Positions 1-6,822 of a stretch of DNA of 6,822 nt are shown here, one piece after another (position 1 is the first letter of the stretch; each line of letters starts with the position of its first letter). Source of the DNA: a virus (Duplodnaviria > Heunggongvirae > Uroviricota > Caudoviricetes); the IMG/VR virus record IMGVR_UViG_2778261593_000007, positions 1 to 6,822 of that record. The stretch is one strand, 5' to 3'. Under the pieces are notes generated by a model. That model saw nothing but the letters and a program-made list of their open reading frames with translations. It was not told the origin of the DNA and ran no database searches. A program made the translations under genes and the position numbers.

Positions 1-753
1 CTGAACCACATTATCTGGGCGAAGCCGTCCGGACGCTGGAACGGATGCAACAAGGAAAGCCTGCGGGCGTATTTCCCGGCAACAGAACGCATTCTGTTTG
101 CGGAACATTATCAGGGGCCATACCAGCCCAAAAATGACGGCTATGCGGCAAAGGGGCGCGAGCTAAAACAGCACGTCATGGCCCCGCTGATTTCTTACTT
201 TCGTGATGCGCGTGAATCACTGGGGGTAACATCGAAACAGATAGCGGAAGCCACCGGAAAGAAAAACATGGCGTCACATTGGTTTGGTACCAGTCAGTGG
301 CAGTTGCCGAACGAGGGTGATTACAGAAAACTGCAGGTGTTATTTGCACGTGTAGCGGCAGAAAAGCATCAGCGCGGAGAACTGGAAAAACCACATCACC
401 AGCTGGTCAGCGCATACAGTGAACTGAACCGGCAATATGCCAGTCTGCTGGATGAATACAAATCACTGCGGCGTTATTTTTCCGTATCAGCTGCAGTGCC
501 GTATACGGATGTCTGGACGCACAAGCCCGTGCAGTATTATCCGGGCAAACATCCCTGCGAAAAACCGGCGGATATGTTGCGGCAGATAATAGAGGCCAGC
601 AGTCACCCTGGTGATTTGGTTGCGGATTTCTTTATGGGATCCGGGTCAACAATAAAAGCGGCGATGGCGCTGGGGCGTCGGGTAATCGGCGTTGAGCTTG
701 AAACTGAACGGTTTGAACAGACAGTCGGTGAAATTTCGGCAATGTGCAATTAA
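1..753 (+). CDS. DNA methyltransferase, beta-class N6-adenine/N4-cytosine (N6_N4_Mtase-like); 5' partial, open to window start
   Basis: Frame 1 is open from nt 1 to TAA 751-753, so the first ATG at 178 is internal. C-terminal part has HPCEKPADMLRQII followed by the SAM-binding motif DFFMGSGST, the order seen in beta-class amino-methyltransferases. The catalytic (D/N)PPY motif would lie upstream, outside the window. Confidence 0.8.
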   Translation: MNHIIWAKPSGRWNGCNKESLRAYFPATERILFAEHYQGPYQPKNDGYAAKGRELKQHVMAPLISYFRDARESLGVTSKQIAEATGKKNMASHWFGTSQWQLPNEGDYRKLQVLFARVAAEKHQRGELEKPHHQLVSAYSELNRQYASLLDEYKSLRRYFSVSAAVPYTDVWTHKPVQYYPGKHPCEKPADMLRQIIEASSHPGDLVADFFMGSGSTIKAAMALGRRVIGVELETERFEQTVGEISAMCN

Positions 754-780
754 ACCCGCCTCCATGCGGGTTGTGGTTTT
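753..780. terminator. Putative bidirectional intrinsic terminator between convergent genes
   Basis: Hairpin AACCCGC(753-759)/GCGGGTT(766-772) with loop CTCCAT, followed by GTGGTTTT (T-tract 777-780) on the + strand. It sits immediately after the methyltransferase stop and overlaps the stop of the minus-strand gene ending at 779. Confidence 0.45.
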
Positions 781-1093
781 ATGGGGTTTCAAAACTTGAT
801 TTTGATTGTTTTGAATCTAGGCGGCATGGTAATGAGATGATGCCTCGCCACCCAGGGTATGCTTTCTTAAAATCAGAAATTGCTTGCGGTTTTATTTTCC
901 CTTGCTGGATTTTTTGAAAGTCATCGAAATACAACCCGTATTTTCCACATTTCGGACAGTGAACCCTGACACCATCGGTCATGCCAAAAACACCATCGTT
1001 GTATTCAGTATCAAATTTTAAATTTGTCAGGTCTCTGAAACGCCCGCGCTCCACTTTGGCGTGAGCGTAACATGCTGGACATTGCTGATTCAT
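779..1093 (-). CDS. Hypothetical zinc-ribbon protein (104 aa), moron-like
   Basis: ORF with ATG at 1093-1091 and a GAGG Shine-Dalgarno 7 nt upstream (revcomp of 1101-1104). Two Cys pairs, CPAC near the N-terminus and HCPKCG about 40 residues later, suggest a zinc ribbon. Hand-counted GC is about 40% versus 55-60% in neighbours, and orientation is opposite to the late operon. Confidence 0.6.
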   Translation of the reverse strand: MNQQCPACYAHAKVERGRFRDLTNLKFDTEYNDGVFGMTDGVRVHCPKCGKYGLYFDDFQKIQQGKIKPQAISDFKKAYPGWRGIISLPCRLDSKQSKSSFETP

Positions 1094-1338
1094 CTGAAAA
1101 CCTCTATGAAGAATCGTTACTAATCATTGAAAGCGTCCGGACTTATGACGCCATGTATAACGTAATATTTTTACCAGAAAAAACAACTCGTTAAATCTTT
1201 CATATCCGCGCCGCGCCCGGCGCACATCAAAAAACCACAGAGCCTTTCAGGGGTGAGCTTACGGGATGGTCAGTGTGACTTTCTCTGTGGGCTGGTCACC
1301 CCCGGGCGCAGGCTCACCCACTAAAAGGAAAAGTCACT
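1094..1338. promoter_or_regulatory. Divergent intergenic region with GC-rich hairpin and a long-range inverted repeat in the leader of the downstream gene
   Basis: 245-bp gap between divergently oriented genes. GC hairpin GCGCCG(1208-1213)/CGGCGC(1218-1223). Long-range 8-bp complementary arms GGGTGAGC(1251-1258)/GCTCACCC(1312-1319) lie just upstream of SD AGGA 1326-1329. I could not place convincing sigma70 -35/-10 hexamers by eye. Confidence 0.3.
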
Positions 1339-1764
1339 ATGTTTGGTATTTTCAAAAAGAAAACCCGCAAGGCCATTACTGAAGTGAAGAAGATGGAGAA
1401 CCGCGACGCAGTGGAGGCGACTGTCTGGGGCGCGTATTCCATTGCATTCGCTGACGGTACCTGTGATGCGAAAGAAATCGCGGTACTGGAGAAAACCATT
1501 GCAGCACTCCCTGCCTTTGCGCCGTTCTCCGGTGAGATTGCACAAATGAGTGCAAATATCCGCGCCCGTTATGAAGCGTCGCCGCGCTCTGCCAATGCTG
1601 AAGCCCTTCGTCAGCTGGCTGACGTGGCAGGTACTGATGACGCGGTGAATGTGCTGTGCTTGTGTCTTGATATCGCTGACCAGGATGGCATTGGTCCGGA
1701 TGAAGAAGCACAACTCAAGAAAATTGCTCAGGCACTGCAGTTGCCGCTGGAGCAGTACCTGTGA
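1339..1764 (+). CDS. TerB-like domain protein (tellurite-resistance TerB fold), 141 aa
   Basis: ATG 1339 with SD AAGGA 1325-1329. Two acidic D-G-x(4,5)-E motifs (AFADGTCDAKEIAVLEK and DIADQDGIGPDEEAQLKKIAQAL) and a basic N-terminus (MFGIFKKKTRKA...KKM) resemble TerB family proteins as I recall them. Codon usage matches neighbouring phage genes. Confidence 0.65.
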   Translation: MFGIFKKKTRKAITEVKKMENRDAVEATVWGAYSIAFADGTCDAKEIAVLEKTIAALPAFAPFSGEIAQMSANIRARYEASPRSANAEALRQLADVAGTDDAVNVLCLCLDIADQDGIGPDEEAQLKKIAQALQLPLEQYL

Positions 1765-1913
1765 AAAGTGCGCGCCTTGTGCTGGCTGCCATCCTGCTGT
1801 TTCTGGTAGTGGCGGTGGATTTCACCGGACGACTGATGTCGGTGCTGGCAGATGGTGTGCTGGTGGCGATGGCGCTGGTCGTGCTCCGGCCTTTACTGCG
1901 TAAATCTGAATAA
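1761..1913 (+). CDS. Small membrane protein, 50 aa, two predicted TM helices (GTG start)
   Basis: GTG 1761 overlaps the upstream TGA as GTGA; SD GGAG at 1749-1752 with 8-nt spacer. Translation VKSARLVLAAILLFLVVAVDFTGRLMSVLADGVLVAMALVVLRPLLRKSE is strongly hydrophobic with CTG/GTG/GCG-rich codons. Absent from the ORF track only because it is under 60 aa. It fills an otherwise unexplained 238-nt gap. Confidence 0.4.
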   Translation: MKSARLVLAAILLFLVVAVDFTGRLMSVLADGVLVAMALVVLRPLLRKSE

Positions 1914-1920
1914 CACCACA

Positions 1921-1986
1921 CAAAAGGCATCTGCGGGTGCCTTTGACGGGGTGTTTTTATGGGCCGCTGGTGGCCCTTTTTTATTT
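1921..1986 (+). terminator. Putative rho-independent terminator (tandem hairpins plus T-tract) upstream of the lysis genes
   Basis: Hairpin 1: AAAGGCA(1923-1929)/TGCCTTT(1938-1944). Hairpin 2: GGGCC(1961-1965), loop GCTGGT, GGCCC(1972-1976), followed directly by TTTTTTATTT (1977-1986). Confidence 0.5.
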
Positions 1987-2001
1987 ACAGGAGAAAAAAG
2001 T

Positions 2002-2394
2002 ATGTCTGAACCCTTATCCGGTTCCGGCACGGCTGCGGCGCTCGGCGGGGCGACGGTATTCGGGCTGTTTACCGGAACGGATTTCGGGATTGTGTTTGGT
2101 GCGTTCGCCGGGGCGTTATTTGTGGCAACGATGCCGCAGGCGCTTTCAGCCTGGCGTGTGGCGGCGCATTTTCTGGTGTCGTTCATTATCGGCGTGCTGG
2201 GGGCAGAGGTTCTGGCATCCTGGCTGGTAAAGCATACAGAGTTTGACGGTGCACCTGTCGACGCATTGTGTGCAGTACTGGTGTCTGTATTGTCGGTAAA
2301 AGTGCTGTCCTTTGTGCACAGGCAGGACGTTATATCACTGATGTCCTGTCTGCTCTCCCGCCTGAAGAGTGGTGGAGGCGACAATGTTAAGTAA
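2002..2394 (+). CDS. Putative holin / lysis-cassette membrane protein (130 aa, 3-4 predicted TM segments)
   Basis: ATG 2002 with SD AGGAG 1989-1993 (8-nt spacer). Gly/Ala-rich hydrophobic segments (TAAALGGATVFGLFTG, FGIVFGAFAGALFVATM, AAHFLVSFIIGVLGAEVLASWL). Lies immediately upstream of the endolysin. Function is inferred from position and hydropathy only. Confidence 0.55.
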   Translation: MSEPLSGSGTAAALGGATVFGLFTGTDFGIVFGAFAGALFVATMPQALSAWRVAAHFLVSFIIGVLGAEVLASWLVKHTEFDGAPVDALCAVLVSVLSVKVLSFVHRQDVISLMSCLLSRLKSGGGDNVK

Positions 2395-2659
2395 CCTTCC
2401 CGGATTACTGAATGTGGCGTTATGCACGGTTATCGTGCTGACGCTCTTTTTTTATCGTCGCCGTGATTCCAGACATAAACCGCTGATGTCATGGCTGGCC
2501 TGGCTGCTGATGTTGCTTTATGGCTTTGTTCCACTCAGCTATCTGTGTGGTCGCCCGTTAGAAACAGACTGGTTCCAGGTGTTTTTTAACCTGCTGTTCT
2601 GCGTGCTGGTGATACGCGCACGCGGGAACGTCACAAAAATCTTTCCATTGTTGAGGTGA
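2384..2659 (+). CDS. Putative holin (91 aa from ATG 2384, about 3 TM segments, charged C-terminus)
   Basis: ATG 2384 with SD GGAGG 2374-2378 (5-nt spacer); overlaps the upstream gene by 11 nt. The ORF track extends it to GTG 2369. Hydrophobic segments LLNVALCTVIVLTLFFY, LMSWLAWLLMLLYGFVPLSYL, WFQVFFNLLFCVLVI, then basic tail RARGNVTKIFPLLR. Stop TGA 2657-2659 lies 2 nt before the endolysin ATG. Confidence 0.55.
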   Translation: MLSNLPGLLNVALCTVIVLTLFFYRRRDSRHKPLMSWLAWLLMLLYGFVPLSYLCGRPLETDWFQVFFNLLFCVLVIRARGNVTKIFPLLR

Positions 2660-2661
2660 AT

Positions 2662-3039
2662 ATGTCGGGTAAATTCAGATTTAGTCGTCGCAGCGAAAAG
2701 AATCTGGAGGGCGTTAAACCACAGCTGGTTGCTGTCGTTCGCCGTGCGCTGGAGCTGACGGAGGTTGATTTCGGTATTACGGAAGGGCTGCGCACGAAAG
2801 AACGCCAGAAACAGCTGGTCGCGGAAGGGAAAAGCCAGACCATGAACAGCCGCCACCTGACCGGTGATGCGGTGGATGTTGTTGCCTGGGTTGGCAGCCA
2901 GGTGTCATGGGACTGGCCTCTGTACGAGAAAATCGCGCAGGCATTTAAGCAGGCTGCCGCAGAGCTGGGAACTGCCATCGAATGGGGCGGGGACTGGAAA
3001 ACACTGAAAGACGGGCCTCACTTTCAGTTGAAACGCTGA
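2662..3039 (+). CDS. Endolysin, peptidase M15 family (L-alanyl-D-glutamate endopeptidase, phage T5 Lys-like)
   Basis: ATG 2662 with SD GAGGTG 2653-2658. N-terminal block SEKNLEGVKPQLVAVVRRALELTEVDFGITEGLRT closely parallels T5 endolysin as recalled. Zinc-ligand motifs SRHLTGDAVD and DGPHFQL are typical of M15/VanY peptidases. GTG 2656 is an alternative start. Confidence 0.85.
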   Translation: MSGKFRFSRRSEKNLEGVKPQLVAVVRRALELTEVDFGITEGLRTKERQKQLVAEGKSQTMNSRHLTGDAVDVVAWVGSQVSWDWPLYEKIAQAFKQAAAELGTAIEWGGDWKTLKDGPHFQLKR

Positions 3040-3053
3040 TAACCAGGTGTGTT

Positions 3054-3236
3054 ATGAGCAGAAAACACTGGACACACAGAATGCCGCGAACGGCGGCGAA
3101 ATGGGCACTGGTAGTGATACTGGTGCCTTTTTTATTGGTGGGATGCGTTAGCCTGGATAAGGCGCGCCAGCTTTTCGATACGGCTTCTCAGGTCTGTGAA
3201 ATTGTCGACGGTGTTCGGCAGTGTCTGCAGAACTGA
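3054..3236 (+). CDS. Small lipoprotein (60 aa), possible o-spanin-like or lysis-associated lipoprotein
   Basis: ATG 3054 with SD AGGTG 3045-3049. Basic N-region, hydrophobic core and lipobox LLVG-C (AAKWALVVILVPFLLVGC). The roughly 29-aa mature part has two Cys. No N-terminal-TM coiled-coil i-spanin partner is detectable. Confidence 0.55.
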   Translation: MSRKHWTHRMPRTAAKWALVVILVPFLLVGCVSLDKARQLFDTASQVCEIVDGVRQCLQN

Positions 3237-3275
3237 TCGCTGACACTCCGCATCTATATTTAAGAGGGTAGATTA

Positions 3276-3404
3276 ATGGAGAAGAAAAATAATCTAAATA
3301 AAAAAGCTGCTGCATCAGCAAATGTAGCAGTTGGCACTCGACTTAATTCAGAATGCTTCGAGAAGATAAATTCTGAATTGTTGGCGCTGTTTGATAAGAC
3401 GTGA
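3276..3404 (+). CDS. Hypothetical small protein (42 aa), AT-rich
   Basis: ATG 3276 with SD GAGG 3264-3267 (8-nt spacer), stop TGA 3402-3404. Translation MEKKNNLNKKAAASANVAVGTRLNSECFEKINSELLALFDKT. A/T-ending codons contrast with the flanking phage genes. Not in the ORF track because it is under 60 aa. Confidence 0.3.
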   Translation: MEKKNNLNKKAAASANVAVGTRLNSECFEKINSELLALFDKT

Positions 3405-3483
3405 AATTGCCGGAAGGCGCAGTCGTTACTGAGTAACAGGCATTACAGCAGCCCTTCACACAGCGATGGGCTGCGATAATGCT

Positions 3484-3684
3484 TTAGTTGTCTTTCATAA
3501 ATCCTTTAATGGCCCATCCCACAAGCCTGATGATGCTGTATACCAACAAGGCAGATATCAGGGAAACAAGGATATCAAACAGTGAAAACCCCCGGGTCTC
3601 TGTTGATAAAAGGCCGAAAATGAACACCAGAATAGCTAACAGAATTCCTACCCGGTGAAAGCCTTTAGAAATCGTGTTTTTCAT
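3484..3684 (-). CDS. Small membrane protein (66 aa, two predicted TM helices), moron-like
   Basis: ATG at 3684-3682 with a strong SD GGAGG (revcomp of 3688-3692). Hydrophobic helices GILLAILVFIFGLL and ILVSLISALLVYSIIRLVGWAI. Hand-counted GC about 41%. Opposite orientation to the late operon, in the position lambda uses for bor. Confidence 0.6.
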   Translation of the reverse strand: MKNTISKGFHRVGILLAILVFIFGLLSTETRGFSLFDILVSLISALLVYSIIRLVGWAIKGFMKDN

Positions 3685-3744
3685 TTGTCCTCCGTATTGT
3701 TTTTTTAAAGGGTGGGAATTTTAACATCAGATGAGTGAAGTTCT
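3685..3744. promoter_or_regulatory. Divergent intergenic region, probable promoters for the minus-strand membrane protein gene and the HNH/packaging genes
   Basis: 60-bp AT-rich spacer with a T7 tract (3698-3704). Weak candidate + strand hexamers TTGTTT (3697-3702) and TAACAT (3721-3726) at 18-bp spacing. Not strong. Confidence 0.25.
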
Positions 3745-4095
3745 ATGCCGTCACGAATCCCCCGCGCATGCCGTAAGCGAGGCTGCGCAGGCACAACAAC
3801 AGACAGCTCTGGCTACTGCGATAAACATCGGGGTGAAGGCTGGGTGCAGCACCAGCGCGGACTGAGCCGCCACCAGCGTGGCTATGGCTCAAAATGGACG
3901 GTGATTCGCGCCCGTATACTGAAGCGCGATAAAGGTCTGTGTCAGTTGTGTCTGCGTGTTGGTGTGGTGAGCGAGGCGAAAACTGTCGACCACATCATCC
4001 CGAAAGCGCATGGCGGAACAGACGCAGACAGCAACCTGCAGAGTCTGTGCTGGCCCTGCCATAAAGCGAAAACAGCGCGCGAACGAATCAGGTGA
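3745..4095 (+). CDS. HNH endonuclease, phage packaging-associated (HK97 gp74-like)
   Basis: N-terminal Cys cluster (CRKRGC...YCDKH) and C-terminal HNH motif DHIIPKAHGGTDADSNLQSLCWPCHKAKT. Located immediately upstream of the terminase small subunit, as in HK97-like phages. Confidence 0.85.
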   Translation: MPSRIPRACRKRGCAGTTTDSSGYCDKHRGEGWVQHQRGLSRHQRGYGSKWTVIRARILKRDKGLCQLCLRVGVVSEAKTVDHIIPKAHGGTDADSNLQSLCWPCHKAKTARERIR

Positions 4096-4210
4096 TAATT
4101 ATTCTCACTTGTGGGGAGGGGCGGGTCAAATCCCTGCAACCCTGGCTGTCCGGGACCGCCCGCCCCGTCAAATTTTTACACCCGCGAAATTAAAAATTTC
4201 AGGATTTGAC
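4096..4210. other. Candidate cos / terminase recognition region between HNH and terminase small subunit genes
   Basis: GC-rich inverted repeat GGGGCGGG(4118-4125)/CCCGCCCC(4159-4166), then a perfect 9-bp AT-rich inverted repeat AAATTTTTA(4170-4178)/TAAAAATTT(4191-4199) just before the terminase small subunit SD and ATG 4211. By analogy with HK97, cos lies between the HNH gene and gene 1. Confidence 0.4.
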
Positions 4211-4681
4211 ATGTCAGGAAAATCTGTTGCGCCCGGAAGAGGGAGAAAGCCGAAGCCGACCACCCGTAAGGAGCTGGCAGGCAATCCCGGCAAGCGGGCA
4301 TTAAATAAGTTTGAGCCAAAATTCACGCCGATCACCCATGCTGACCCTCCCGAGTGGTTTGATGAAACCGCTCGCCATATGTGGGATACCATTATTCGTG
4401 AGCTCTGTGCCCAGCGAGTTCTTTATGTTACTGATTTGCATAATGTCGTTGCATTCTGCACTGCTTTTCGCAACTGGCATGAGTCGCAGCAGGAGGTTAT
4501 GCGCGTTGGGATTACGGTAGAGAGTGAGGCGGGGCCAAAGAAAAACCCGGCACTCACGGCGGCAAATGAGGCCGCCAGACAAATGGTGACATTCGGTAGT
4601 TTATTAGGGCTCGATCCTGCCAGTCGGCAGCGGCTTATGACGCCGAAGCAGGGGAGCGATAATCCATTTAAAAACCTATGA
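4211..4681 (+). CDS. Terminase small subunit (P27/HK97 gp1-like family), 156 aa
   Basis: ATG 4211 with SD AGGA 4201-4204. Basic N-terminus with the GNPGKR motif ([24 protein letters not shown]). Stop overlaps the large subunit start as ATGA. The track ORF 4010-4681 is an in-frame read-through of the intergenic region. Confidence 0.8.
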
Positions 4682-6408
4682 CACGAAAAAATTACGTGAA
4701 CGTTAACGCCGCAAATCAGTATGCACGTGACGTGGTTCGCGGAAAAATTCAGGTTTGCCGTTATGTCGTTCTGGCCTGCCAGCGTCACCTTGATGACCTG
4801 GAAAACTCAGCTAAAAAAAACTATCCGTTTAAATTTGATAAGGATAAAGCTGAGCGTGTGGCGAAATTTATCCAGCTTTTGCCACACACCAAAGGGGAGT
4901 GGGCATTTAAACGGATGCCCATTACGCTTGAACCCTGGCAGTTGTTCTGTATTTGTGTTGTGTTTGGGTGGGTGAGAAAAAAGAGCGGCCTGCGTCGATT
5001 TCGCGAGGCTTACAACGAAATACCCCGTAAAAACGGGAAATCAGCAATGTCTGCTGGCGTTGGTCTGTATATGTTTGCCTGCGATGATGAATTTGGCGCT
5101 GAAGTGTATTCCGGGGCCACAACAGAGAAACAGGCGTGGGAAGTTTTTCGTCCAGCCAGACTGATGGCGCAACGCACGGAACCATTGCGTGAAGCATTTG
5201 GTATTGAAGTACATGCTCAAAGCATGAGCCGTCCGGAGGACGGTGCCCGTTTTGAACCGTTGATTGGAGATCCCGGAGACGGCGCGTCGCCGAGTTGCGC
5301 CCTCATTGATGAATATCACGAGCATCAGACCGATGCGCTTTACCAGACGATGCAAACTGGGATGGGGGCACGTCGTCAGCCGCTGATTTTTGGTATCACC
5401 ACTGCGGGCTATAACATTGAAGGACCATGCTACGACAAACGTCGTGAAGTGATCGAAATGCTTGAAGGGATTGTGCCCAATGATGAACTGTTCGGGATTA
5501 TTTATACCATTGACGACGGGGATGACTGGACAGATCCGGCGGTATTGCGTAAAGCGAACCCCAATATGGGGATTTCTGTCTACAGCGATTACCTGTTATC
5601 TCAACAGCGCGCGGCAATTAACAACCCACGAAAAGTGGGCGTATTCAAAACGAAACATCTGAATATCTGGGTGGCAGCAAAAGACGCCTTCTTCAATCTT
5701 GTGAACTGGCAGAAATGTGAAGACAGGAGTCTGACGCTGGAGCGTTTTGAGGGGCATACCTGCATCCTGGCGTTTGACCTTGCGCGAAAGCTGGATTTGA
5801 ACGCGATGGTACGGCTTTTTACCCGAGAGATTGACGGTAAAACGCATTATTATTGTGTCGCACCCAAGTTTTTTGTTCCCTACGACACAATCTACAGCGC
5901 TGATGTGACAGACAGTCGCACAGCAGAACGTTATCAGAAGTGGGTTGAAGGGGGATTTATTACCGTTACCGATGGCGCGGAAATTGATTACCGGGAGATC
6001 CTTGAGTCTGCGAAAGAAGCAAATCGCTTAAACGCAGTGGAGGAGTCACCTATAGATCCCCACGGAGCCACAAACCTTTCTCACCACCTTGCTGATGAAA
6101 ACTTAAACCCTATTACCATCATTCAGAACTACACCAATATGTCGGATCCCATGAAGGAACTTGAGGCGGCTATTGAGGCCGGGCGTTTTCATCATGATGG
6201 TAATCCTGTGATGACATGGTGTATCAGCAACGTGATTGGAAAGCACATTCCCGGCGACGATGATGTTGTTCGTCCGATCAAACAAGGCAACGAAAACAAA
6301 ATCGATGGTGCTGTGGCGCTGATTATGGCGATTGGTCGTTGCATGCTATTTGAGAAAGAAGACACGCTGTCTGACCACATTGAGTCCTACGGGATCCGTT
6401 CGCTTTAA
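4678..6408 (+). CDS. Terminase large subunit (Terminase_1 / HK97-like), 576 aa
   Basis: Walker A-like PRKNGKS, Walker B-like ALIDEYHEH, and a C-terminal nuclease-like region with conserved acidic residues (DGAVALIMA). Start is translationally coupled to the small subunit (ATGA at 4678-4681). Confidence 0.9.
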
Positions 6409-6419
6409 CTGAGGTAATT

Positions 6420-6602
6420 ATGATCATGCTGATTCTCGCGCCTCTGGTGGGCGTGCTGGGTGTGCTTTTGCTGGCGTATGGTGCCTGGCTGATTTATCCC
6501 CCGGCTGGTTTTGTTGTTGCCGGGGCGCTGTGCCTGTTCTGGTCGTGGCTGGTGGCACGATATCTCGACCGTACACGGCAGTCTGTCGGCGGAGGTAAAT
6601 AG
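6420..6602 (+). CDS. Small membrane protein (60 aa, two predicted TM helices) between terminase and portal
   Basis: ATG 6420 with SD GAGG 6411-6414 (5-nt spacer). Translation [60 protein letters not shown]. Host-like GC-rich codons. Stop TAG 6600-6602 overlaps the portal GTG 6602. Confidence 0.5.
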
Positions 6603-6822
6603 TGTTCTTTTCGGGGTTATTTCAACGAAAAAGTGACGCACCAGTGACCACGCCAGCAGAGCTGGCGGAGGCTATCGGGCTGTCATACGACACCTATACC
6701 GGAAAGCGGATCAGCAGCCAGCGGGCCATGCGACTGACGGCGGTCTATTCCTGCGTCAGGGTGCTGGCTGAGTCTGTTGGTATGCTGCCCTGCAGTCTCT
6801 ACAAAATCAGCGGCACCCTTAA
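6602..6822 (+). CDS. Portal protein, HK97 family; 3' partial, runs off window end
   Basis: GTG 6602 with SD GGAGG 6591-6595. Translation [73 protein letters not shown] matches the conserved N-terminal region of HK97-family portals. Missing from the ORF track, presumably because it has no in-window stop. Confidence 0.8.
   Translation, partial: MFFSGLFQRKSDAPVTTPAELAEAIGLSYDTYTGKRISSQRAMRLTAVYSCVRVLAESVGMLPCSLYKISGTL

Follow-up and report, generated by a model that had tools for sequence, protein, structure and literature searches.

We analysed a 6,822-nucleotide stretch of viral DNA (Caudoviricetes; IMG/VR record IMGVR_UViG_2778261593_000007, positions 1 to 6,822; referred to here as the window), and we focused on ymfR, a 60-codon open reading frame (ORF) that lies between the genes for the terminase large subunit (TerL) and an HK97-family portal protein. 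The upstream gene occupies 4678..6408 on the plus strand with its TAA stop at 6406-6408, matches the Pfam families TerL_ATPase and TerL_nuclease as well as phrog_9 (E=3e-189), and encodes a protein identical to the TerL of phage phiP27 over 570 amino acids (aa). The ymfR frame runs on the plus strand from an ATG at 6420 to a TAG at 6600-6602 (6420..6602 including the stop, 60 aa), and it is followed on the same strand by the 5' part of the portal gene (first 73 codons, 6602..6822), which is identified by phrog_12 (E=1.5e-12), PF04860, and the RefSeq and phiP27 annotations. The gap between the TerL stop and the ymfR start is 11 nucleotides (nt) and holds a Shine-Dalgarno (SD) motif, GAGG, at 6411..6414 of the plus strand, 2 nt after the TerL stop and 5 nt before the ATG; most ymfR relatives carry an upstream motif of the GAGG or GGAG type. 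The SD motif of the portal gene, GGAGG at 6591..6595 of the plus strand, sits inside the last ymfR codons, where it encodes a conserved terminal Gly-Gly, and G59 is invariant in the alignment of close relatives despite the variable tail around it. The last base of the ymfR stop codon (6602) is also the G of the portal GTG start (6602-6604), which produces the junction TAGTG, and RefSeq annotates both coding sequences with the same 1-nt overlap. An earlier interpretation made from the letters of this DNA (the sequence-only reading) had described the SD motif and the stop/start overlap as they are found here. It had placed the element at 6420-6604, of which the start is right and the end is not, since the ORF ends at 6602 and position 6604 takes in the portal GTG.

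We found that the length of the ORF is unremarkable by itself, because the window contains 61 ORFs that reach 40 aa or more. The coding evidence lies elsewhere. The GC content and third-position GC content (GC3) of ymfR are 0.59 and 0.64, compared to 0.57 and 0.67 for the start of the portal gene and 0.49 and 0.50 for TerL. The annotated ymfR frame has the best codon log-likelihood (-4.02), while the other plus-strand frames score -4.40 and -4.34 and the overlapping minus-strand ORF scores -4.26; two minus-strand ORFs overlap the gene, at 6405-6641 and 6424-6576, and both have a poorer codon fit and no support. Codons 1-46 evolve under purifying selection, with dN/dS values of 0.05-0.19 at dS up to about 1.5. 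In the C-terminal tail dN roughly equals or exceeds dS, which indicates free evolution except at the terminal Gly-Gly. The ORF thus exceeds chance, with a fixed length conserved over hundreds of clusters, purifying selection, and the same position across phyla. A scan of 5900-6822 returned no promoter-like site and no plus-strand terminator. We also considered a programmed -1 frameshift that would fuse the hydrophobic protein to the portal, and rejected it: the portal frame contains a TAA at 6597-6599, three bases before the GTG, and in most relatives this frame opens only 3-15 nt upstream.

The identity of the gene is near certain. Its product matches the PHROG family phrog_502 ('membrane protein') with E=4e-28, residues 1-55 aligning to positions 3-57 of the 58-position profile, and it is 100% identical to L37 of phiP27, which the phiP27 record lists as a 'membrane protein' directly before the portal. 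At identical coordinates RefSeq/PGAP annotates the gene ymfR, product 'protein YmfR' (WP_015967640.1), after the gene of the e14 prophage of Escherichia coli K-12. The ORF is therefore an already known and annotated gene (YmfR, L37, phrog_502) rather than a discovery, and the window adds no new entity. We found ymfR in 1383 of 5426 complete E. coli genomes (25%), in up to four copies per genome, and it has been retained in the defective e14 prophage of K-12. Other carriers include ST64B (sb3), SfI, SfII, SfIV, 118970_sal3, PY54, phiKO2 (gp3), and Azospirillum phage Cd; YmfR is the same gene as e14 YmfR, phiP27 L37, ST64B Sb3, and phiKO2 gp3, with the same slot between TerL and portal and no structural difference. 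Scans of the ORF and of 97 diverse family members against Pfam and NCBIfam returned no family, only sub-threshold matches to generic transmembrane (TM) noise (TctB, DUF1206). Two records filed under Gram-positive names, JAEWTL010000102.1 (a 'Bacillota bacterium' metagenome-assembled genome, MAG) and OR844959 ('Enterococcus phage Efm 3-10'), share 94-95% identity with the ymfR region of E. coli, and this filing is most likely a binning or contamination artefact and not a real host range.

We next describe the protein, for which the sequence-only reading had claimed strong hydrophobicity and two predicted TM helices. Both are borne out by hydropathy and by structure prediction. The GRAVY value of YmfR is 1.20, and 19-residue Kyte-Doolittle averages reach maxima of 2.80 over residues 1-19 and 1.81 over residues 28-46, falling between them at a Y-P-P-A-G turn. 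An AlphaFold2 model built on a 97-sequence alignment contains helices at residues 2-25 and 27-57 (mean pLDDT 89.9) with a break at residue 26. On the plus strand, the first hydrophobic helix (TM1, codons 2-25, 6423..6494) carries conserved G11, G14, and G21; the turn that is the family signature (codons 26-30, 6495..6509) coincides with the helix break of the model; the second hydrophobic helix (TM2, codons 31-48, 6510..6563) carries an invariant G35 and a LCLxWSW block specific to Enterobacterales; and a charged tail (codons 49-60, 6564..6599), variable in the alignment and in its dN and dS values, is predicted to be cytoplasmic, lysine and arginine being enriched at both termini. The local turn sequence is W-L-I-Y-P-P-A-G-F, a tight aromatic-Pro-x-Gly turn, and across the family the consensus consists of a basic N-tail, a hydrophobic helix, S-Y-G-A-W-L-I-Y-x-P-A-G-F-I-V-x-G, a second hydrophobic helix, and a charged tail. 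P28 is invariant among the 97 diverse members.

Per family member, the N tail holds on average 1.5 lysine and arginine residues, the turn 0.11, and the C side about 1.7. Since basic residues flank both ends and are nearly absent from the turn, the positive-inside rule predicts that YmfR inserts in the cytoplasmic membrane with both termini in the cytoplasm (N-in/C-in) and with the YPPAG turn at the outer face. G21, P28, and G35 are invariant and G14 is nearly so, which gives an exact 7-residue spacing through the hairpin. These heptad-spaced small residues would let the two arms of the hairpin pack closely, and the protein may oligomerise. A few family members are tandemly duplicated, with about 100-122 aa, four hydrophobic helices, and two PAG-type turns, implying that a covalent dimer of the hairpin unit can be functional. 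A Foldseek search with the AlphaFold2 model found no match in the PDB and only weak matches in BFVD, to uncharacterised small phage proteins. A profile search of PDB sequences returned only insignificant TM similarities (Lgt, aquaporin Z) and no related chain in solved phage or portal structures.

We then asked how widely the gene and its position are conserved. A word-indexed search gave 151 clusters, all from Enterobacterales and nearly all of 60-61 aa, while an exhaustive profile search of 1.84 billion representatives gave 461 clusters (50% identity representatives) at E<=1e-3, almost all of 45-90 aa. A tblastn search with a distant family member found no match, as low-complexity masking removes TM1. 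Loci were collected from species-representative genomes (46) and from viral contigs (80, with a sub-clade alignment without the exact YPPAG motif), neighbouring genes were annotated with hidden Markov models (HMMs) built for the purpose, and counts were made over 96 distinct small proteins. Because the DNA scans selected for the turn motif, the presence of the turn in these loci is given by construction, whereas position, neighbours, and junction geometry were unselected. TerL lies upstream on the same strand in 83 of the 84 loci with enough sequence, and an HK97-family portal lies downstream in 87 of 88. The 1-nt overlap between the small gene's stop and the portal start occurs in 70 of 87 loci. 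At the other end, the start of the gene overlaps the TerL stop in an ATGA-type junction in 24 loci or follows it by 2-17 nt, these two arrangements covering most cases. The hosts comprise Alpha-, Beta-, and Gammaproteobacteria, Micromonospora, Ruminococcaceae, Yanshouia, and a Dehalococcoidia MAG, and the family as a whole spans Proteobacteria, Actinomycetota, Bacillota, and Chloroflexota. The sequence-only reading had located the ORF within a packaging/head operon and in translational coupling with the portal, and had proposed a synteny comparison over relatives; the comparison shows ORF, neighbours, overlap, and upstream SD-type motif in most relatives.

Our data indicate that the small protein tracks the portal more closely than TerL. 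Over 75 non-redundant loci, the more alike two portals are, the more alike are the small proteins (Spearman 0.44; partial correlation 0.39 when controlling for TerL), while its partial rank correlation with TerL similarity is 0.08 when controlling for the portal. The normalised score of the small protein is 0.70 in locus pairs in which portal and TerL are both similar and 0.61 in pairs with similar portals and unrelated TerL; it falls to background (0.40) where TerL is similar and the portal unrelated, and it is 0.36 where both are unrelated. Locus pairs are phylogenetically non-independent, and these numbers are to be read as a pattern and not as a significance test. In the window GC3 rises in a step from TerL (0.50) to ymfR (0.64) and the portal (0.67). 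The portal-tracking similarity, the mosaics, and the GC3 step therefore place recombination junctions between TerL and the small gene, and the gene in the portal/head module. We looked within the window for a mosaic breakpoint between TerL and ymfR relative to phiP27 and found none, the whole of 3745-6822 being 99.4% identical to phiP27; the module boundary is visible only in other genomes and, in the window, as the GC step.

We also drew a sample that was not biased by the small gene. A tblastn search with the phiP27 portal gave 1508 phage records, from which 16 were taken spread over the range of similarity. A family member occupies the slot between TerL and portal in 7 of these 16 phages: Vibrio K259, Mycobacterium phage Yeet (gp9, annotated 'membrane protein'), Pseudomonas PG1, Ralstonia YO021_1 (an unannotated record), Bacillus rho14, Flavonifractor Cormatin (annotated 'membrane protein'), and Halomonas QHHSV-1, in which the gene is split by a frameshift. 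The seven slot genes were confirmed by the family HMM and by separate PHROG scans, with matches to phrog_502 (3e-17, 1e-12, 1e-6, 2e-4, and 8e-4) and to the sister families 7105 and 1142. A catalogued family found in this sample and in a quarter of complete E. coli genomes contradicts the idea, put forward in the sequence-only reading, that a membrane protein in the packaging operon is unusual. In QHHSV-1 the annotated 30-aa QHH_52 covers TM1 to the turn, and TM2 and the tail are read in a different frame that extends to the start of the portal gene; the split is due to a sequencing error or marks a pseudogene. Portals that follow a ymfR-family gene nearly all open with a short hydrophobic or aromatic motif (MFFSGLF, MAGLFG, MGIF, MFLRQFF). 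Of the nine portals without the gene, seven open differently and two (Terrisporobacter and Streptococcus phi29854) have the motif anyway. This is only a trend, which may reflect phylogeny or may hint at a partner site.

The slot itself invites comparison with phage lambda, which the sequence-only reading had drawn. Lambda gpW, a head-tail adaptor or head completion protein, resembles YmfR in lying between TerL (A) and portal (B), in its size (68 aa), and in overlapping the portal start. The likeness of position holds and that of descent does not: gpW is soluble and matches PF02831 (6e-38) and phrog_75, and YmfR matches neither. We tested YmfR as a gpW homolog and rejected it, since the hhalign probability is 3.8% and rests on a 4-residue PAGF coincidence. 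YmfR homologs in GenBank PQ793804, ON470603, ON470584, and ON470580 are labelled 'head-tail joining protein W'; these labels are wrong, a positional mis-annotation, as gpW is unrelated.

We tentatively favour the reading that YmfR is a membrane accessory of the portal/head-assembly module, rather than of the terminase, lysis, or lysogenic-conversion cassette. According to this reading, ymfR would be made late, from the packaging/head operon. Ribosomes would pass from TerL across the 11-nt gap with its SD motif into ymfR and would re-initiate at the portal GTG that overlaps the ymfR stop by one base. The hairpin would insert in the cytoplasmic membrane, its two ends facing the cytoplasm, and would act there together with the portal synthesised right after it from the same ribosome. 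It might, for example, anchor the nascent portal ring to the inner membrane or act as its chaperone there, or do so for the site of prohead initiation or of packaging. Such a role would improve assembly and would not be indispensable, because several lineages have lost the gene. The sequence-only reading had raised a membrane-targeting factor; this idea is possible, and it is the basis of the hypothesis we prefer. T4 gene 40 is not known to be adjacent to gene 20, and HK97-type phages are not known to assemble proheads on the membrane. The precedent is the membrane step of T4 portal initiation, in which gp40 is needed for the membrane-bound gp20 portal initiator together with the host factors YidC and DnaK (PMC9958956). 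If the preferred hypothesis is right, YmfR would resemble gp40 as a small phage factor at the inner membrane that takes part in a portal or prohead-initiation step; this is an analogy with no claim of homology, and the T4 portal and terminase are of a different family.

Several observations weigh against a portal-assembly role. Nine of the 16 portal-sampled phages have no ymfR-family gene, and HK97 itself is without it, its TerL stop overlapping the portal start. In the nine negatives TerL either joins the portal directly or is separated from it by a MazF toxin gene (Campylobacter CJIE4-1) or by a soluble ORF unrelated to the family (Mycobacterium BIB7); in Sinorhizobium AP-16-3 the TerL stop overlaps the portal start as in HK97. 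Since the portal is coupled to whatever lies upstream (HK97, AP-16-3), coupling alone is not specific evidence of a functional tie. Since HK97 proheads with portals assemble without such a protein and 9/16 relatives lack the gene, a general requirement for portal assembly is excluded. Co-inheritance with the portal may be no more than a consequence of the two genes lying side by side and of where recombination junctions fall. The architecture of the hairpin is enough to account for every conserved residue, so that no interaction surface is identified. Finally, in the searchable literature on YmfR and its relatives we found no functional statement and no experiment on localisation, partners, or phenotype; mentions of ymfR concern e14 deletions, its use as an integration site, or typos for YfmR. 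Taken together, the YmfR family is an ancient, common, and dispensable companion of the HK97-type portal family.

We considered other functions for the hairpin. The one that survives best, though we regard it as unlikely, is a lysis-related protein, similar to a class II holin, pinholin, or antiholin, that would oligomerise via its glycine-rich helices and modulate permeability or the timing of lysis. Class II holins and pinholins such as S68 of phage 21 have roughly 60-70 aa, two TM helices, N-in/C-in topology, glycine-rich helix faces, and a charged C-terminus. YmfR shares these features, the topology by prediction, together with a glycine-zipper-like spacing, and would be expressed with the late genes; small size with a TM domain and a charged C-terminus is generic and does not discriminate. 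Against this stands the genetic setting. A complete lysis cassette (Phage_holin_8, Phage_holin_3_7, and an M15 endolysin; 1852-3039) already lies 3.4 kb upstream, YmfR is encoded outside it, and a ymfR-family gene never adjoins an endolysin gene, being found in the slot defined by TerL in 83/84 loci and by the portal in 87/88. Co-inheritance with the portal also speaks against a holin, as does conservation from Actinomycetota to Proteobacteria, which is not normal for holin families. A dual-start motif with a charged residue between the starts is absent: YmfR begins with MIM and its relatives with MFLI or MILM, without conservation of the second Met. Finally, YmfR has no match to a holin family in Pfam or PHROG.

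Somewhat less probable still is a superinfection-exclusion or host-modifying membrane protein that blocks DNA entry by other phages or alters the host envelope, a role the sequence-only reading had suggested. HK97 gp15 provides a precedent, as small inner-membrane proteins encoded in structural operons can be exclusion factors (PMC3594210); in PHROG, phrog_502 is placed in the category 'moron, auxiliary metabolic gene and host takeover', and the gene is kept in the defective e14 prophage. HK97 gp15 is a moron that has a promoter and a terminator of its own, deviant GC content, expression from the prophage, a role in superinfection exclusion, and homologs only in Enterobacteriaceae (PMC3594210). 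YmfR differs on these points: it has no promoter or terminator of its own, its GC content equals that of the adjacent portal (though it is unlike that of TerL), and its conservation in a fixed slot crosses phyla. Both its start and its stop are coupled to the neighbouring genes, a single slot is maintained across phyla whose envelopes and phages differ, and the small protein follows the portal phylogenetically. None of 19 family members matches any PADLOC model at E<=0.01. The sole expression datum is an increase of ymfR mRNA in K-12 (log2 4.5), alongside other e14 genes, under an SOS-inducing drug (PMC10012262), which is induction with lytic genes and not constitutive prophage expression. These data disfavour an exclusion factor, and the 'moron/host takeover' category is probably misleading for phrog_502.

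A third and quite improbable alternative is a virion-associated hydrophobic protein, packaged with or bound to the portal or the inside of the capsid and serving in the next infection, for instance by inserting in the recipient membrane during DNA ejection. Within the head module the gene immediately precedes that of the portal and is coupled to it roughly stoichiometrically, and its presence in phages with contractile tails (phiP27, which has a tail sheath) and in siphoviruses (PY54, phiKO2) indicates that it belongs to the head and not to the tail. A fully hydrophobic 60-mer is nevertheless expected to reside in the membrane of the producer cell, no related chain occurs in any solved phage or portal structure, and we found no mention of the protein in virion proteomics in the searchable literature.

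We give little credence to the view that ymfR is a translational coupler only, delivering ribosomes to the portal start at a set frequency with the peptide as a by-product. The nearly universal 1-nt stop/start overlap, the portal SD motif within the last ymfR codons, the freely evolving C-terminal tail, and the direct coupling of portal to TerL in lineages without the gene would all be expected of a coupler. A by-product would hardly be under strong purifying selection on the amino-acid sequence of codons 1-46, nor would the hairpin architecture and the P-A-G turn persist across phyla at saturated nucleotide divergence, and tandemly duplicated versions exist. Short ORFs are common in this GC-rich window, the minus-strand ones opposite ymfR included, yet a chance ORF, or the long portal 5' leader without protein product that the sequence-only reading had allowed for, is effectively refuted by conservation, selection on the protein, codon usage, and synteny, and by the RefSeq and phiP27 annotations.

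The remainder of the window was identified from its ORF list and from Pfam and PHROG matches as the late region of a phiP27-like E. coli prophage. The small terminase subunit (TerS), TerL, the 60-aa ORF, and the start of the portal are identical to phiP27 at the protein level, and a 923-bp piece of the window matches a prophage of E. coli STEC276 at 100% identity. A DNA methylase gene is found at 178-753. Between the methylase region and the lysis cassette lies a TerB-like gene ('tellurite resistance', 1339-1764; phrog_632, E=1e-64), which is probably a cargo gene; in the phiP27 record the stx2e genes are placed just upstream of the lysis genes. The lysis cassette (1852-3039) consists of two tandem holin-family genes of differing type, Phage_holin_8 (1852/1999-2394) and Phage_holin_3_7 (2369-2659), which overlap one another and the M15 endolysin gene (2656-3039). 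An 84-aa ORF at 2982-3236 (phrog_7528) with one hydrophobic segment overlaps the end of the endolysin gene and may be a spanin-like component. An HNH endonuclease gene (3745-4095) is followed by the gene for a P27-family TerS that ends at 4681. As the longest ORF, TerS has 223 aa from an ATG at 4010 and overlaps the HNH gene, while in phiP27 and RefSeq it has 156 aa, which corresponds to window positions 4211-4681. The annotated cos site of phiP27 would fall, by offset, at approximately 4157-4166 of the window, between HNH and TerS.

A minus-strand ORF of 66 aa at 3484-3684 (MKNTISKGFHRVGILLAILVFIFGLLSTETRGFSLFDILVSLISALLVYSIIRLVGWAIKGFMKDN) contains two hydrophobic segments. It lies in a stretch of low GC content (0.40-0.47, compared to 0.55 in the flanks) that has no counterpart in phiP27, and it has no PHROG match. 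This ORF fits the profile of a moron or exclusion factor better than the 60-aa ORF does.

ymfR is among the commonest uncharacterised genes of enterobacterial prophages, carried by a quarter of complete E. coli genomes, and its fixed slot between TerL and portal spans phages of Mycobacterium and Bacillus to prophages of E. coli. We did not find the comparative picture described here, that is, the fixed slot, the near-universal 1-nt coupling, the co-inheritance with the portal, and the signature turn with heptad glycines, in the searchable literature. Beyond a few model phages, it is poorly understood how one portal ring comes to be built and positioned at a single vertex of the capsid, and a conserved membrane protein whose gene is so firmly tied to that of the portal offers a cheap and direct handle on this question. 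A bolder and rather doubtful extension of the accessory reading is that YmfR hairpins are a widespread and so far unrecognised membrane component of HK97-type head assembly, which might form rings or engage YidC and dock the portal dodecamer on the membrane for prohead nucleation, for the packaging motor, or for both. If this were true, membrane-initiated capsid assembly, so far documented to our knowledge only for T4, would be common among the temperate phages of Proteobacteria, Actinomycetota, and Bacillota.

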